From the NCBI GenBank assembly GCA_038322815.1, contig JBBQGG010000007.1:1218-65217 (forward strand): 64,000 nucleotides of DNA, written 5' to 3'. The position numbers and the translations under genes were made by a program. Positions 12,240 through 18,185 of this stretch are shown here, piece after piece; within the stretch, counting starts at the first letter, position 1, and every line of letters begins with the position of its first letter. Under the pieces are notes generated by a model. That model worked only from the letters and a program-made list of their open reading frames with translations, searched no databases and was not told the origin of the DNA. Origin of the DNA: Candidatus Kapaibacterium sp. GTDB taxonomy: Bacteria; Bacteroidota; Ignavibacteria; Palsa-1295.

Positions 12240-13070
12240 GTGGCTGAAATAGCATTATCACATCAAACCGAAGTTCACGAGCATCATACGCCTGTCTATA
12301 CTAGCACCGGAACGCCGATGGGAAAAGTCTTTATGTGGCTTTTCCTGTGTCAGGATGCGTTGATGTTCATGGGACTTTTTGCAGCGTATATCTCCGTACG
12401 CATCGGTCAATCTGCGCTTTGGCCATCGCCGAACTCTGCGCATGCGCCGGGCATGGAGCACTATCCGCTGGATATCAATCTAACGGCTATCAATACCTTC
12501 ATCCTTATATGTTCGAGCGTAACGATGGTAATGGCTGTGCAGGCAGCGCAATCGGTTACGAAAAAAGGGCTTATTACATGGCTTCTTTTTACGGCGCTTG
12601 GCGGTGCGATATTTTTGGGAGTGCAGGTTTTTGAATACCGTCATCTCGTTTTTGAGGATGGCATGGGCATGGAAAAAAGTCTATTCGATGCTACTTTTTT
12701 CAGCCTCACAGGTTTTCACGGATTGCATGTACTTAGCGGAGTGATCTATCTGCTTTGCGTGGTGATCGCAACAAAGCTCGGACCAAAAGAACATTCGGAA
12801 AACGGCTGGGTGATGGCTTTTATGCGCATTGCTGCGATAGGCTTTTCACTATACTTATGGTTCGGACCATTGCATAAATGGCCGCCGCTTCCGCATGTAC
12901 TTGTTTCGATCCTTGCTGCAGCAGTACCATATATCATGATCCGCGGAGTAAAGTGGCTTCGCGAACGTCCGGTATCAGGACAAGGTGATGATGTGGAAGT
13001 AGTCGGATTGTACTGGCATTTTGTGGATCTGATCTGGATCATTTTGTTTACGCTTGTGTATCTGATCTGA
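12240..13070 (+). CDS. cytochrome c oxidase subunit III (heme-copper oxidase family)
   Basis: 276 aa and polytopic. Has the SLTGFHGLHVLSGVIYL motif characteristic of CoxC/CtaE. Confidence 0.85.
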   Translation: MAEIALSHQTEVHEHHTPVYTSTGTPMGKVFMWLFLCQDALMFMGLFAAYISVRIGQSALWPSPNSAHAPGMEHYPLDINLTAINTFILICSSVTMVMAVQAAQSVTKKGLITWLLFTALGGAIFLGVQVFEYRHLVFEDGMGMEKSLFDATFFSLTGFHGLHVLSGVIYLLCVVIATKLGPKEHSENGWVMAFMRIAAIGFSLYLWFGPLHKWPPLPHVLVSILAAAVPYIMIRGVKWLRERPVSGQGDDVEVVGLYWHFVDLIWIILFTLVYLI

Positions 13071-13212: not shown

Positions 13213-13515
13213 ATGACGATGGAACATAGCACAACCAACCATACTAAAACATATTTAAAGATCTTCGCAGCGCTTTTTGTGCTGACGGTTATCGAAGTAT
13301 TGCTTTCGCAAAGCGGAATGCCGCATACGCCGATGGTCGTATTGCTGATCGCGTTCGCACTTGTTAAAGCAGGGCTTGTTGCCGTGTATTTCATGCATTT
13401 GAAATATGATGCGAAATTCCTTTCGATCATTGCCTATGCTCCTCTTGTCGTTGCTTCGATCCTGATCTTCATGCTTGCAATGGAATGGACCTTCCAGCCG
13501 CATTGGCTATTTTAA
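13213..13515 (+). CDS. cytochrome c oxidase subunit IV (caa3-type small subunit)
   Basis: 100 aa with three TM helices, immediately after subunit III. Fits the subunit IV family pattern. Confidence 0.7.
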   Translation: MTMEHSTTNHTKTYLKIFAALFVLTVIEVLLSQSGMPHTPMVVLLIAFALVKAGLVAVYFMHLKYDAKFLSIIAYAPLVVASILIFMLAMEWTFQPHWLF

Positions 13516-13518
13516 ACT

Positions 13519-13647
13519 GTGAATGAAAAGCCGCTGCAGATTGATCGTAACCCAAAATTCCGGCGGTGGCTTGGCATTGGTATAGCGATCTGGGTTTTCC
13601 TAATGTTCGTATTTCTTGCATTTGCTATAGCGGTCGATTGGCATTAG
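13519..13647 (+). CDS. possible 42-aa single-TM small protein (GTG start), coupled to coxIV
   Basis: VNEKPLQIDRNPKFRRWLGIGIAIWVFLMFVFLAFAIAVDWH. Starts 3 nt after the coxIV stop. Not in the ORF track (under 60 aa). Confidence 0.25.
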   Translation: MNEKPLQIDRNPKFRRWLGIGIAIWVFLMFVFLAFAIAVDWH

Positions 13648-13690
13648 GCATAGAGCGCACCGACGTGGCTCAATTTAAAAGAACTTTAAT

Positions 13691-13810
13691 CTTGTCATTC
13701 TGAGCGAGGCAGCGAAGAATCTGAGATTTCGGTTTGTCTGAAAGCTCAGATTCTTCGTTCCGCTTCTGCTCCTGTGGTCGCAGAAGAATGCTTCACTCAG
13801 AATGACAATT
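13691..13810. repeat. nested-palindrome repeat, variant family (copy E) with co-varying arms
   Basis: TGTCATTCTGAGCGAGGCAGCGAAGAATCTGAG...CTCAGATTCTTCG...CACTCAGAATGACAA. Same architecture as B/D/F, but both inverted-repeat pairs carry matched substitutions. Confidence 0.75.
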
Positions 13811-13875
13811 TAAATTAAGCCACTACTGCTCACCGAGTGCAAGAACTTTTTCCTTCCTTTAATACTTTCTTATAG

Positions 13876-14544
13876 ATGAAATCATGTCATGGGAAAATTA
13901 TTTTTCTTCTTTGTATTAGCATTGCATTTATCTCCTGCAATACACAGAATACAGAAACAACTCCCGCGGCTCCGAAAGATTTTCATGGCATTCCTCCGCA
14001 GGGAATCGGCGGAGATAGTTTATTGAACATTGAAAAGAACAGATGGCTTTCTTCACAAAATTTTATTGATGTAAACGTCTCCGATATAATCGGCATTCAG
14101 CACGATATATTATCTGCCATCGGCAGTGAAGATCGCTATAAGTGGACTCCGGTTGCAATGAATCAGGCAGCTTCAGGTGAATTACGTGCCGTTCGTTTGA
14201 GTGGATATATACTAGCCGTAAAAGAAGAAGGTAATGAAAGTTGTAATGGCAATAATGATAATTATCATGATTACCATATTTGGATCACTGACTCTATCGG
14301 CAAAGATAAAAGCAAATCAATTATTGTTGAAGCAACTCCATTTTGGAAAGAACAATTTTCCGGTTGGCAATTGACAAAATTCGAGCAGTTAGTGAGCCAA
14401 CATGCATCCTTCAGAGTTTCTGGCTGGATCATGTGGGATGAAGATCATCCCGAGCAGATCGGCAGGAGCCGTGCATCATTATGGGAAATTCATCCGGTAA
14501 CGAAATTCGAATTCTTAAGCGGCGGAAACTGGCAGACATTATAA
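13876..14544 (+). CDS. lipoprotein of unknown function (paralog 1)
   Basis: Lipobox (LCISIAFISC). Shares a long conserved C-terminal block with 15887..16618 (PAPKDFHGIPP.GIGGD...YHD.HIWIT...I.VEATPFWKEQF..WQL..FE.L......RVSGWI.WDE.H.....SR.SLWE.HP.TKFE..SGG.W). Confidence 0.6.
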   Translation: MKSCHGKIIFLLCISIAFISCNTQNTETTPAAPKDFHGIPPQGIGGDSLLNIEKNRWLSSQNFIDVNVSDIIGIQHDILSAIGSEDRYKWTPVAMNQAASGELRAVRLSGYILAVKEEGNESCNGNNDNYHDYHIWITDSIGKDKSKSIIVEATPFWKEQFSGWQLTKFEQLVSQHASFRVSGWIMWDEDHPEQIGRSRASLWEIHPVTKFEFLSGGNWQTL

Positions 14545-14548
14545 TTCT

Positions 14549-15244
14549 ATGAAAAAAACATTCACATTTTTTGGAGTTTTTCTCTTCGCCACATTTCTTC
14601 TTTCCTGCGATGCAACGCCGGATGGAAAGGTGGAAGAGGCGTTAATGAAATTTCAGAAAGTTGATGATGGATTAAAGGCAAAATTATTCAGCACAACAAA
14701 ACTTTCTCCTGCTATTGCCGATAAAGACCTTACACCCGAATCGAAGTACCGCAATAATAGCTACGATACTGATCGTCCGCCATCGGATACGACACCAGAC
14801 TGGCGGTTGGAAGTTCGGGGCAATGTAAAATATCCGGGGTATTATTCGCTTGATCAAATTAAGACTCTTGGCATGACCATTGAAAATGCAAAGCATGTTT
14901 GCGTTGAAGGCTGGAGCCAGAATGTAAAATGGGGCGGCACACCGCTCTGGAAATTTCTGGATTGGATTGGTGCCGATCCTAAATCACAATTTATCTATGT
15001 GGAATGCGCCGATAAATATTATGAATCCTATGATATCGAAAGCGCGCGTCATCCGCAAACGCTTCTTTGTTATGAATCCTACAATAAACCTCTGGCACTT
15101 GAACACGGCGCACCATGCCGAATCGTCATGCCGACAAAGCTTGGATATAAGAGTGCGAAATGGCTTACCAAACTTGTCGTTACCGATAAAAAGCCCGGAG
15201 GATATTGGGAAGATCAGGGATATGATTGGCATGCAGGAATGTAA
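14549..15244 (+). CDS. molybdopterin-dependent oxidoreductase, sulfite-oxidase fold (MsrP/YedY-like catalytic subunit)
   Basis: 231 aa with an HVCVEGWSQNVKWGG motif (Mo-ligand Cys of the Oxidored_molyb/YedY family). The N-terminus is a Sec/lipoprotein-type signal (FLLSC), not a twin-arginine signal. Confidence 0.7.
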   Translation: MKKTFTFFGVFLFATFLLSCDATPDGKVEEALMKFQKVDDGLKAKLFSTTKLSPAIADKDLTPESKYRNNSYDTDRPPSDTTPDWRLEVRGNVKYPGYYSLDQIKTLGMTIENAKHVCVEGWSQNVKWGGTPLWKFLDWIGADPKSQFIYVECADKYYESYDIESARHPQTLLCYESYNKPLALEHGAPCRIVMPTKLGYKSAKWLTKLVVTDKKPGGYWEDQGYDWHAGM

Positions 15245-15873
15245 TGAAAACTAAATCCGGCAAAGAATATCTTCATCCTCTTATCGTGCGGCTTACGCAT
15301 TGGTTGAATTTTATTGCCCTTTCGATCATGGTTGCAAGCGGGTTGCGAATTTTTAATGCTTCTCCTCTTTTTGATTTCCATTTTCCAAAGTGGATCCTCT
15401 TGGGTGGTTGGCTGGGCGGAGCAAGGCTTTGGCATTTTGCTGCGATGTGGATATTTTTTTTCAACGGAGTTATTGCCGTTACCTATAATATCATTTCAAG
15501 ACACGGGCGCGATACCACGATCTTTCGCAAACAGGATATTCCCGGAGTTCTTCCCATGATCAAATATTATTTGCGGATAGAAAAAAAACCTCCGAAATAC
15601 GGAAAATATAATTCTCTGCAAAAACTTGCTTATACCAGTACTCCTTTTCTTGCGATCGGCGTAACGCTTTCAGGATCGGTCTTGTATCTGCCTGTCCAAT
15701 TGCAGCCCTTAACCTGGATCTTTGGCGGATATGATTTTGCGCGCTGGATTCATTTCCTTTTTATGGCAGCATTTATTTTCTTTTTTCTCGGTCATATTTT
15801 TATGGTCTCCATATCCGGCTGGTGGAATTTCTGGTCAATGATATCAGGATGGAAGAAAGTGTCGGAGCCATGA
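15244..15873 (+). CDS. b-type cytochrome membrane subunit (Ni/Fe-hydrogenase cytochrome-b / MsrQ-like partner)
   Basis: Overlaps the upstream stop (TAATG). Four TM helices with conserved His (LIVRLTHWLNFIALSIM, WHFAAMW, HFLFM). The ORF track starts at 15226; the ATG at 15244 is preferred. Confidence 0.65.
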   Translation: MKTKSGKEYLHPLIVRLTHWLNFIALSIMVASGLRIFNASPLFDFHFPKWILLGGWLGGARLWHFAAMWIFFFNGVIAVTYNIISRHGRDTTIFRKQDIPGVLPMIKYYLRIEKKPPKYGKYNSLQKLAYTSTPFLAIGVTLSGSVLYLPVQLQPLTWIFGGYDFARWIHFLFMAAFIFFFLGHIFMVSISGWWNFWSMISGWKKVSEP

Positions 15874-15886
15874 TTTCGGGGATTGT

Positions 15887-16618
15887 ATGATTAAAGGAAT
15901 GTCAAAAAGTAATAAAATTCTTCTTACCCTCGGTCTTCTTATTGTTATCGTATTGATCTATATTGCGATTCGTAAGAATGAATCGCCCAAAGGAACTGGA
16001 ACTCCTGCTCCCTCATCTATCGGTCCGGCTCCGAAAGATTTTCATGGTATCCCCCCGGAAGGTATTGGCGGCGACCCTGAACTAAATAAAGAAAAGAACA
16101 GGTGGGCAGCGTCCACACAATTTATACCAATTGGTGTCAGTCAGATCATTTCTTTACCTCATGATGCATTGTTTATGATGGGGAAAGAAAGACGCAGCAG
16201 GTGGACATCGGCTGCAATTGAGCAGGCTGCTGCCAATGAAAATCGTGGAATTCAAGTGATCGGATATTTAGCACATGCAAAAGAATCAGGGTCGGAAGCA
16301 TGTAACGGAAAAAGTGATCTTTACCATGATTTTCATATTTGGATAACTGAATTTCCGGGAGAAAATAAAAATAAGGGAATTGTCGTCGAAGCTACGCCTT
16401 TTTGGAAAGAACAATTTCCTGCCTGGCAGCTTCGTGTTTTTGAGAAGCTTGCTGACCAAAATGCGAAGGTCAGAGTCTCAGGCTGGATCCTTTGGGATGA
16501 AGAACATGGGGATGAAGTAGGCAAGTCTCGTGGTTCACTATGGGAAGTTCATCCTTTTACAAAGTTTGAGGTATTTTCGGGCGGCAAGTGGGTTGAACTA
16601 GGGGCAGATGCTATCTGA
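15887..16618 (+). CDS. lipoprotein of unknown function (paralog 2)
   Basis: Paralog of 13876..14544 (see that entry). Completes a four-gene cluster. Confidence 0.6.
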   Translation: MIKGMSKSNKILLTLGLLIVIVLIYIAIRKNESPKGTGTPAPSSIGPAPKDFHGIPPEGIGGDPELNKEKNRWAASTQFIPIGVSQIISLPHDALFMMGKERRSRWTSAAIEQAAANENRGIQVIGYLAHAKESGSEACNGKSDLYHDFHIWITEFPGENKNKGIVVEATPFWKEQFPAWQLRVFEKLADQNAKVRVSGWILWDEEHGDEVGKSRGSLWEVHPFTKFEVFSGGKWVELGADAI

Positions 16619-16680: not shown

Positions 16681-17367
16681 ATGAGACTCCTAATTTTTGT
16701 ATCGATCTTTTTTTTCTGCAGGGTAGCTTTTTCTCAGGAAGACCCTCATCCGATGATGAAACCCGGGAGGACCATGGCTCCTATAGCTCCTAAATCGTAT
16801 GCCGATAGTGAAGAATTCAAAAAATTGTTCAAAGAATTTTATCCTATTATTAAACCTGCAAAATCCGTCAAAGAACAGGCAGCCCAATATTTTCAGGGTA
16901 TATCGCGTTCGTTTGCAATGCAGGGTATTGATTCTGCCGAAGCTGCAAAGGCAGCATTCAAAAATTTGGATGACCAAGCTTTTGAAAAACTATATTTCGA
17001 TATTTATCGTAGGAATTTAAGCGCAAAAGAATTAAAAATCTATAATGCGTTTATAAAAACCCCTGAAGGAAAACATATTGCAGAAGTATGGACAAATCTT
17101 CAGCGCGCATCAAGCGATGCAACAATGTATATTGCCCGAACATTGAATCTCAATCTTACTCCCATTCGTCAGGCAGCACGCGATAAGATGGAAAAAGAAC
17201 GATCTCAGAAAGGGGAGGAGCATCCGCCAAACATGCCGACTCGACGGGGAAACGTAGATGTCTTTGATCAGAGAAATGCCGGCTCAAAAGATTCGTTGAT
17301 GAATTTGCAAAGGCAGCAAGGCAAAATTCCTCCGGTGAAAATTCCTGCTGTCCCTTCAGAAAAGTGA
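16681..17367 (+). CDS. secreted hypothetical protein (possibly DUF2059-like)
   Basis: Signal peptide, alpha-helical composition, and a charged C-terminal tail. Confidence 0.4.
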   Translation: MRLLIFVSIFFFCRVAFSQEDPHPMMKPGRTMAPIAPKSYADSEEFKKLFKEFYPIIKPAKSVKEQAAQYFQGISRSFAMQGIDSAEAAKAAFKNLDDQAFEKLYFDIYRRNLSAKELKIYNAFIKTPEGKHIAEVWTNLQRASSDATMYIARTLNLNLTPIRQAARDKMEKERSQKGEEHPPNMPTRRGNVDVFDQRNAGSKDSLMNLQRQQGKIPPVKIPAVPSEK

Positions 17368-18185
17368 GTGAACAAAAATGCATCGGTGTCTTCGATTCCG
17401 GTATCGGCGGCTTGACGGTTGTTAAAGAATTATTTTCCAGCGTACCGGATGAGCGTATTGTCTATTTCGGTGATACCGCACGCGTTCCGTATGGCTCGAA
17501 ATCTGTCGAAACTGTTCGCCGCTATGCAAAGGAAGATACGGAGCTTCTTCTTTCACATAAGCCAAAACTAATCGTCGTTGCATGCAATACGGTTAGCGCC
17601 GTCGCTCTTGATGTCGTTAAATCTATTGCCGGCGATATCCCTGTTATCGGAATGATCGAACCTGCCTGCAAAGAAGCGTTACATGTTTCATCATCGGGCA
17701 GAATTGGCATTATCGGTACTGAGGCTACTATCTCAAGTAAAGCATACGAAATTGAATTACAAAGCGAAGCAAAAAGAATCGGCAAGCACATAGAAACATT
17801 CGCAAAAGCCTGTCCGCTTTTTGTGCCGCTTGCCGAAGAGGGTTGGGAAGAAAAAGTTGTTGCTGAACTTGTTGCTCGTGAATATCTGCAATCACTTCAC
17901 GAAGCAAAAATTGATACGTTGATCTTAGGCTGTACGCATTATCCTGTTCTTTCGCACGTCATTCAATCGGTGATGGGTGCAAATGTAACGCTTATCAATT
18001 CCGGAGCAGTTGCAGCACGAGAAATTAAAATATTAGAAGCAAATACTCCAAAAGCAAAACCGGAGCATATTTTTCTCGTCAGTGATATTCCAAGAAAATT
18101 TCAATCGATAGGTGAAAGATTTTTGGGATATGAATTACCGCAAATAAAACAAGTTATCTTTGAAGAAGCATGGGTAACTATCTGA
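17364..18185 (+). CDS. murI: glutamate racemase
   Basis: IGVFDSGIGGLTVVKEL N-terminal motif, the CNT catalytic-Cys region, and a second catalytic Cys in GCTHYP. Confidence 0.9.
   Translation: MSEQKCIGVFDSGIGGLTVVKELFSSVPDERIVYFGDTARVPYGSKSVETVRRYAKEDTELLLSHKPKLIVVACNTVSAVALDVVKSIAGDIPVIGMIEPACKEALHVSSSGRIGIIGTEATISSKAYEIELQSEAKRIGKHIETFAKACPLFVPLAEEGWEEKVVAELVAREYLQSLHEAKIDTLILGCTHYPVLSHVIQSVMGANVTLINSGAVAAREIKILEANTPKAKPEHIFLVSDIPRKFQSIGERFLGYELPQIKQVIFEEAWVTI

Follow-up and report, generated by a model that had tools for sequence, protein, structure and literature searches.

The four genes at positions 13876-16618 of the DNA analysed here (64,000 nucleotides of contig JBBQGG010000007.1 of Candidatus Kapaibacterium sp., assembly GCA_038322815.1, referred to below as the window) are, in the reading that we hold with slightly better than even confidence, two modules lying side by side: an independent, quinol-linked pair of a molybdenum (Mo) enzyme and a cytochrome b, and a locally duplicated gene for an envelope protein with an oligonucleotide/oligosaccharide-binding (OB) fold, which probably acts on nucleic acids. 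A preliminary description, made from the sequence letters, had presented them as one cassette in which two paralogous lipoproteins bracket an MsrP-like molybdoenzyme and a b-type cytochrome. The open reading frame (ORF) listing of the window places all four genes on the + strand, where that description had put them:

13876..14544, + strand: upstream OB-fold paralog, here LipoA; 222 amino acids (aa), lipobox F-I-S-C21; recognised from the ORF and by paralogy
14549..15244, + strand: sulfite-oxidase-fold molybdoenzyme, YedY/MsrP-like; 231 aa, lipobox L-L-S-C20; PF00174, E 7.5e-31
15244..15873, + strand: b-type cytochrome, four-helix, HyaC/FdnI-type; 209 aa from ATG; PF01292, E 3.9e-24
15887..16618, + strand: downstream OB-fold paralog, here LipoB; 243 aa, N-terminal signal-anchor helix, no lipobox

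The tight junctions and the paralogy of the flanking pair are borne out. As read from the DNA, LipoA ends with TAA at 14542-14544 and is followed, after a gap of 4 nucleotides (nt), by the ATG of the Mo enzyme at 14549; the TAA of the Mo enzyme (15242-15244) overlaps the ATG of cytochrome b at 15244 by 1 nt (TAATG); and the TGA of cytochrome b (15871-15873) is separated from the ATG of LipoB at 15887 by 13 nt, and not by the 14 nt counted earlier. The ORF listing also offers a TTG at 15226 as an alternative upstream start of cytochrome b, ATG 15244 being the most likely one. An alignment of LipoA with LipoB (223 columns, E 3e-91) shows 54% identity, and both contain the long conserved block quoted in the preliminary description. 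The designation of both as lipoproteins stands for LipoA, which carries the lipobox F-I-S-C21 by motif, but not for LipoB, whose N-terminal region has an 18-residue hydrophobic anchor. Because this region lacks a Cys and the hydrophobic stretch is modelled as a helix (residues 8-31), LipoB is predicted to be a signal-anchored protein and not a lipoprotein.

The molybdoenzyme and its cytochrome b

The identification of the two middle genes as a sulfite-oxidase-fold Mo enzyme and a haem-b membrane protein proved sound. The protein encoded at 14549-15244 matches PF00174 (Oxidored_molyb) in Pfam, and its best PDB match is E. coli YedY/MsrP (1xdq; E 1.4e-13), with the Mo-ligand Cys conserved (KHVCVEGWS aligned to RMRCVEAWS of 1xdq). 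It scores 85.7 bits against the MsrP equivalog NF003767 of NCBIfam, which is below the cut-off of 207 bits. Its 7,453 homologues are labelled 'molybdopterin-dependent oxidoreductase' or 'YedYZ catalytic subunit' in their sources. Together with the lipobox L-L-S-C20, found by motif, these features describe what is predicted to be a periplasm-facing, lipid-anchored enzyme of the YedY/MsrP type.

The export signal of this enzyme sets it apart from most of its relatives. The N-terminus in the window, MKKTFTFFGVFLFATFLLSC (14549-14611), contains no twin-arginine (RR) motif, and it was compared with homologues P0222-P0341. The nearest 20, which are at least 67% identical and all of the Kapaibacteria clade, have Sec-type lipoprotein signals that are short, and an RR motif is present in only one of them. 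Among the following 100, which are 53-62% identical, 90 carry an RR motif followed by a lipobox, the pattern expected of a twin-arginine translocation (Tat) lipoprotein signal. The Mo enzyme of Kapaibacteria thus appears, as judged from these signal sequences, to have exchanged the Tat signal for a Sec-type lipoprotein signal, which is unexpected for an enzyme with molybdenum cofactor (Moco). The loss of the twin arginine raises the question of how a Moco enzyme enters the periplasm in these bacteria.

Cytochrome b has a single Pfam match at E<=0.1, PF01292 (Ni_hydr_CYTB). It falls below every equivalog cut-off of NCBIfam, the match to TIGR02125 (E 5.5e-21) included. Four His residues in helix-like positions are invariant across 10 homologues, and the last two, in the final helix, lie 14 residues apart, a spacing typical of the di-haem subunits of the FdnI/HyaC type. 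MsrQ belongs to the ferric-reductase-like family, and the Pfam scan (E<=0.1) gave no match of cytochrome b to that family (PF01794). In our view this protein is likely to link the Mo enzyme to quinol as its redox partner.

The preliminary description compared the layout with that of MsrPQ (YedYZ). The analogy is fair as far as the design is concerned: the catalytic subunit faces the periplasm, has the sulfite-oxidase fold and the Cys ligand and finds its best solved relative in YedY, and its gene is translationally coupled to that of a haem-b membrane protein, presumably the link to quinol. Membership of the MsrPQ family does not follow. The partner in the window is a four-helix PF01292 cytochrome b, whereas MsrQ is a six-helix, ferric-reductase-like protein; the catalytic subunit is approximately 100 aa shorter than MsrP and far under the equivalog cut-off; and it is a Sec-signal lipoprotein without a Tat signal. 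In turn, cytochrome b resembles FdnI of formate dehydrogenase-N and HyaC of the Ni/Fe hydrogenase in its PF01292 domain, four transmembrane (TM) helices, four His and the 14-residue spacing in the last helix, but it is paired with a sulfite-oxidase-fold enzyme and not with a subunit of the DMSO-reductase family or of a hydrogenase. Pairs of a Mo enzyme with a PF01292 cytochrome b that are labelled 'YedYZ' are, strictly taken, not MsrPQ.

The same pair was found in loci L008, L010, L012, L013, L027, L066 and L090-L093. In all three other Bacteroidota/Ignavibacteriota genomes that were examined, the Mo enzyme and the PF01292 protein are encoded together in unrelated neighbourhoods lacking an OB-fold gene, in one case inside a Moco-biosynthesis cluster. 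Going by gene content, the pair appears to be an autonomous module that works in an MsrPQ-like way outside the MsrPQ family, and it may well be independent in vivo too. In the mechanism that we propose, the lipid-anchored enzyme encoded by this module (14549-15873) would exchange electrons with the quinone pool through the four-helix, four-His cytochrome b; the unit would serve in respiration or repair and would resemble MsrPQ in its working, its membrane partner not being homologous to MsrQ.

The OB-fold family of the flanking proteins

As the preliminary description stated, the flanking proteins have no recognisable family: Pfam, NCBIfam, PADLOC and PHROGs gave no match for LipoA or LipoB, and neither single-sequence nor profile searches found a significant match among PDB sequences. 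No named OB family (tRNA_anti-codon, SNase, BOF, NfeD and others in Pfam and NCBIfam) was matched by the window proteins or by the members of two alignments, A1 (50 sequences) and A2 (150 diverse representatives), no PADLOC defence-system model was matched by any of the four window proteins, and none of the sources of relatives that we searched gives the family a name. The relatives are nonetheless numerous. A word-indexed search returned 73, and an exhaustive profile search far more, namely 2,231 cluster representatives (50% identity) at E<=1e-3 and 382 at E<=1e-30. A scan of species genomes in GTDB gave 277 loci, almost all from metagenome-assembled genomes, in Kapaibacteria/Ignavibacteriota, Chloroflexia, Acidobacteriota (Blastocatellia/Pyrinomonadaceae), Gemmatimonadota and Myxococcales. 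Nearly all members start with a TM anchor or a lipobox, so that the family is predicted to be extracytoplasmic and membrane-tethered.

The structure of LipoB was modelled with AlphaFold2 from the 50-sequence alignment. The model has a predicted local distance difference test (pLDDT) score of 91.7 and consists of a helix (residues 8-31), an N-terminal helix/loop subdomain (about 50-120) and a barrel (121-237), in which DSSP assigns strands 121-133, 149-154 and 165-169, a helix 182-190 and strands 194-203 and 219-231. Such a barrel of five strands, in which the helix falls between the third and the fourth, is an OB fold. The remote-homology check that had been proposed for these proteins thus yielded a predicted fold of high confidence, but its PDB matches are weak. 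The nearest Foldseek matches in the PDB (probability 1.0, weak all the same) are the anticodon-binding OB domains of asparaginyl-, aspartyl- and lysyl-tRNA synthetases (AsnRS, AspRS, LysRS), Stn1, RPA32 and OBodies. A library of viral proteins also gave weak matches, to 'tRNA_anti-like' and 'nucleic acid-binding lipoprotein' entries, to single-stranded DNA-binding (SSB) proteins and to LEF-3, which bind single-stranded DNA. The tRNA_anti-codon type of OB domain (the N-domains of AspRS, AsnRS and LysRS, Stn1, RPA32) therefore offers the nearest solved folds with the same five-strand topology; it differs in that the match scores are weak, no Pfam or profile match exists and the window proteins are located outside the cytoplasm.

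Twenty residues are invariant in the 50-sequence alignment (G59, D63, K70, N71, R72, E137, D148, H150, E168, P171, W180, R196, G199, D204, H207, R215, W219, E220, H222 and P223). Both window paralogs keep all of them, and they stay at least 90% conserved across the 150 diverse representatives. Two Cys residues, C55 and C141, are also conserved in typical members, whereas in the Kapaibacteria proteins C55 is missing and the other Cys stands at 139 instead of 141. In the second module as we envisage it, the two flanking paralogs would be tethered to the membrane outside the cytoplasm, each with the helix/loop subdomain packed on the OB barrel. Residues D63, K70-N71-R72, E137, D148-x-H150, E168, R196, D204-x-x-H207, R215 and W219-E220-x-H222 may form a ligand or metal site, possibly a catalytic one. 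The target of such a putative site would be a polyanionic polymer of the envelope, most likely nucleic acid.

The main reason for favouring a nucleic-acid-related role is that the OB domain is repeatedly fused to S1/P1 nuclease and lamin-tail domains (LTD), and by analogy with known systems we propose such a role for the family. An S1/P1 nuclease stands N-terminal to the OB domain in at least seven clusters, which are 30-47% identical (P0089, P0111, P0348, P0350, P0351, P0353 and P0359), and two of these seven additionally contain SH3_3. No stand-alone S1/P1 nuclease was found near the OB family in the fetched loci. A C-terminal LTD is present in P0087 and in 18 of 80 GTDB loci, all of Chloroflexia. 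The PADLOC model 'SNc+LTD' matches P0087 in its LTD part only, so that the OB domain stands where the known SNc+LTD architecture has a staphylococcal-nuclease domain. Fusions to SH3_3 were seen in seven of the 150 representatives and to DUF5667 in two. Among P0175, P0208 and P0452, two have an N-terminal DUF5667 (anti-sigma-factor-like) region and a long Thr/Pro-rich linker before the OB domain, and one has a DnaJ domain (PF00226, from precomputed annotation) N-terminal to it.

A parallel is found in the extracellular nucleases ExeM of Shewanella and Xds of Vibrio, which combine an LTD, an OB fold and an EEP nuclease, and in which the OB part is needed for DNA degradation (PMC6085458, PMC6746945). 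These enzymes also join an LTD to an OB domain at the envelope, and relatives of the window proteins link the OB family to an LTD or an S1/P1 nuclease. The likeness does not extend to the sequence: the OB domain of the window proteins shows no similarity to the YhcR-type OB domain of ExeM and Xds, its barrel has an extra N-terminal subdomain and the invariant His/Asp/Glu set, and the window proteins themselves contain neither an LTD nor a nuclease domain.

Several other relationships were considered and set aside. Staphylococcal nuclease (SNase), the classic OB-fold nuclease, likewise has an OB barrel in which acidic and Arg residues are conserved, and 'VVEATP' behind strand 3 and 'SRGSLW' ahead of strand 5 look, to the eye, like SNase 'LVDTPE' and 'GRGLAY'. 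This lead found no support: hhalign gave a probability of 0.1 against S. aureus nuclease, and no SNase chain was among the 50 best Foldseek matches. The sole PDB profile match, to the colicin E3 rRNase domain, is not significant (E 1.2) and was treated as chance, as was the match of one family member to Pfam 'Cytotoxic' (E 4e-4), since the aligned stretch is missing the catalytic His and the window proteins do not retain the Glu. An NfeD-like OB domain came into consideration since FloA lies 1.6 kb downstream. Neither Pfam nor the fold matches contained NfeD, the predicted topology places the OB domain outside the cell, and the linkage to FloA is limited to Kapaibacteria. A YceI-like partner of cytochrome b561 found no Pfam match.

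The family numbers at least 2,200 clusters (50% identity) from soil and freshwater phyla, most of which are uncultured, and it lacks a Pfam or NCBIfam model and a solved structure. With a fold predicted at high confidence, a set of candidate functional residues and telling domain fusions, it is now ripe for a DUF-style definition.

Synteny, duplication and the possible ligand of the OB family

ORFs were called in 89 fetched loci and searched with the window proteins. Neither a Mo enzyme nor a cytochrome b lies within 8 kb of the OB gene in any of the 56 loci from phyla other than Kapaibacteria (0/56). The proposal that the flankers are generic partners of Mo enzymes did not survive this comparison, nor the three out of three Mo-cytochrome b pairs without an OB neighbour; what the preliminary description had named as speaking against its own proposal, a common family not syntenic with Mo enzymes elsewhere, is largely what the 2,231 representatives and these 56 loci present. 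The flankers, for which an electron-relay role had also been suggested, contain no motif for haem, Fe-S or another redox cofactor. Neighbour-ORF clustering and a Pfam scan of the immediate neighbours revealed no neighbour family common across phyla, and only lineage-specific neighbours were seen: PurF-like genes, ABC transporters and, in Chloroflexia, GT9.

In the pooled Pfam scan, the 76 immediate neighbours included five GATase_6/7 proteins, four of them also with Pribosyltran (amidophosphoribosyltransferase-like, PurF). These neighbours come from GTDB loci outside Kapaibacteria, probably of Blastocatellia/Pyrinomonadaceae, and probably represent lineage-specific synteny; they deserve notice given a possible nucleotide-related role. 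In the Gemmatimonadota loci L001 and L003, the OB gene lies between a divergently transcribed gene for a TrAA12/GSDH-like beta-propeller dehydrogenase and a YCII-family gene.

Within the Kapaibacteria clade the order OB-DUF2059-MurI is present in every locus found with an OB protein (L006-L032 and L066; 16681-19279 in the window), the exception being L093. FloA is frequently the next gene, and at least 12 Kapaibacteria loci have COX3-COX4 immediately upstream. The site between COX4 and the OB gene is occupied by the Mo-cytochrome b pair only in L008/L016, L010, L012, L013, L015 (where cytochrome b was detected), L027, L066, the P0024 contig and L093, and at least 15 Kapaibacteria loci keep the downstream OB gene without the pair. 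The OB gene of L027, a locus with the pair, is near-identical to those of L025 and L028, which lack it. In a neighbour-joining (NJ) tree the pair appears at the same site in three subclades, and its patchy distribution suggests ancestral presence followed by repeated loss, while insertion is a possible alternative. The survey of neighbourhoods that had been called for thus finds the complete four-gene unit kept in four assemblies, but confined to one lineage, in which most members lack the Mo pair. In the same tree LipoA belongs to a lipobox-bearing clade nested within Kapaibacteria, and because this clade is monophyletic LipoA is taken, on tree topology, to be a lineage-specific duplicate that arose within this group. 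LipoB would represent the ancestral single-copy gene in a backbone of COX3-COX4-small ORF-[Mo-cytochrome b]-OB-DUF2059-MurI, and LipoA the duplicate that would have gained the lipobox. Should the flanking proteins prove independent of the Mo pair, the 'four-gene cassette' would amount to ordinary synteny within one lineage.

A number of observations weigh against the reading of two separate modules with a nucleic-acid-acting OB protein. The spacing of the four genes is operon-tight. The complete unit recurs in four assemblies (the window, L010, the P0024 contig and L093), and the upstream-type paralog stands directly before the Mo enzyme in all four contexts known; in L093, whose OB proteins are 50% (upstream) and 58% identical to those of the window, the LipoB-type copy stays beside Mo-cytochrome b even though DUF2059-MurI is absent. 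As for the ligand, the link to nucleic acids rests on fusions in distant relatives and on fold matches that are weak (Foldseek E ~7e-4, TM-score 0.25-0.36), the OB family shows no sequence or profile similarity to a known nuclease or nucleic-acid-binding family, and the SH3 fusions and nearby cell-wall genes (MurI, NamZ, GlmM-like) fit a glycan ligand equally well.

The points on linkage would be accounted for if the two OB proteins had been recruited in this Kapaibacteria sublineage as dedicated accessory subunits of Mo-cytochrome b, presenting a substrate (for instance a damaged polymer or an envelope protein) to the Mo enzyme at the membrane, or stabilising the complex; this is the idea of the preliminary description narrowed to one lineage. 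The operon-type junctions (4-nt gap, 1-nt overlap, 13-nt gap), the persistence of the complete unit in the four assemblies, the four out of four upstream contexts and the cytochrome b and OB genes that touch or overlap in L008 and L012 all speak for such a recruitment. We nevertheless regard it as unlikely, as the family as a whole is unlinked to Mo enzymes (0/56 loci), at least 15 Kapaibacteria loci have the OB gene and no Mo-cytochrome b, Mo-cytochrome b pairs exist elsewhere without an OB gene, and the flankers show no haem, Fe-S or other redox motif. Moreover, both paralogs keep the invariant residues of their Mo-unlinked relatives and so give no sign of a new function.

The points on the ligand bear on the idea that the OB family binds or cleaves an envelope glycan, peptidoglycan or polysaccharide, and not nucleic acid. 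OB folds also bind oligosaccharides, and SH3_3 is typical of cell-wall enzymes; in line with this are the SH3_3 fusions, the several invariant Trp, the synteny with MurI in Kapaibacteria and the presence of NamZ, a GlmM-like mutase and BamA in the window neighbourhood, a heptosyltransferase neighbour in Chloroflexia and the typhoid-toxin B subunit among the PDB fold matches. LTDs have also been reported alongside oligosaccharide-binding domains (Mans 2004, as cited in PMC6085458). Set against this, the fusions to S1/P1 nuclease are nucleic-acid-specific, SH3_3 is found on S1/P1 nucleases too, most of the best fold matches are OB domains that bind nucleic acids, and the neighbours are conserved within lineages only. 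A glycan ligand is accordingly given a low probability.

Similarly improbable in our view is that the family consists of periplasmic metal binders or metallochaperones in which the three invariant His and the carboxylates form the site. Periplasmic OB-fold metal binders exist, for example the copper chaperone CusF, and S1/P1 nucleases are zinc enzymes; a CusF-like protein could serve the adjacent cytochrome oxidase or molybdoenzyme in Kapaibacteria and supply zinc in the S1/P1 fusions. The invariant D148-x-H150, D204-x-x-H207 and E220-x-H222, COX3-COX4 directly upstream in at least 12 Kapaibacteria loci and the zinc enzymes among the fusion partners are compatible with this proposal. In other phyla, however, there are no oxidase or metal-transport genes nearby, nothing like CusF or Mop is among the 50 best Foldseek matches, Met- or Cys-rich motifs are absent, and lamin-tail and SH3 fusions are atypical of chaperones.

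A bolder combination, which we consider quite unlikely, would make the OB family a novel kind of enzyme or receptor that is tethered to the envelope, depends on metal and is directed at extracellular nucleic acid, and the duplicated pair of Kapaibacteria would have been co-opted to work physically with a quinol-driven molybdoenzyme. The invariant His/Asp/Glu/Arg/Trp set would then be the catalytic or binding centre. The molybdoenzyme is itself unusual by its Sec-type lipoprotein signal in place of a Tat signal.

Surroundings of the four genes

The window neighbourhood contains RpoN, NamZ, COX3/4, MurI, FloA, a GlmM-like mutase and BamA, and is a housekeeping envelope region. The features on both sides of the four genes are:

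12240..13070, + strand: cytochrome c oxidase subunit III; PF00510, E 1.9e-18
13213..13515, + strand: prokaryotic cytochrome oxidase subunit IV; PF03626, E 3.9e-15
13519..13647, + strand: 42-aa single-helix membrane ORF with GTG start and C-terminus IDWH; unannotated, right after the COX4 stop
13686..13822, no strand assigned: nested hairpin of the repeat-element type; 137 nt, minimum free energy -66.8 kcal/mol, z -8.5
16681..17367, + strand: DUF2059 protein, the usual Kapaibacteria neighbour downstream of LipoB; PF09832, E 2.8e-05
17364..18185, + strand: glutamate racemase, MurI-like; PF01177 (Asp_Glu_race) on orthologues at this position, phmmer from the window ORF

The DUF2059 gene overlaps the start of MurI by 4 nt in the window. 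The hairpin sits in the 360-nt gap between the oxidase genes and LipoA, and an Rfam search of it gave nothing significant. Its motif CATTCTGAGC...CGAAGAATC is also present in L011 (a Kapaibacterium) and in L033 and L045 (Chloroflexia), and because it recurs in loci of unrelated phyla the hairpin appears, from its sequence, to be a widespread repeat-type element. In tblastn searches the 42-aa ORF was conserved at the same position in 17 related loci, with 50-90% identity, and its product is probably a small membrane protein associated with the oxidase. At the site of this ORF in L095 and L096, the gene caller put a 43-aa gene on the opposite strand.

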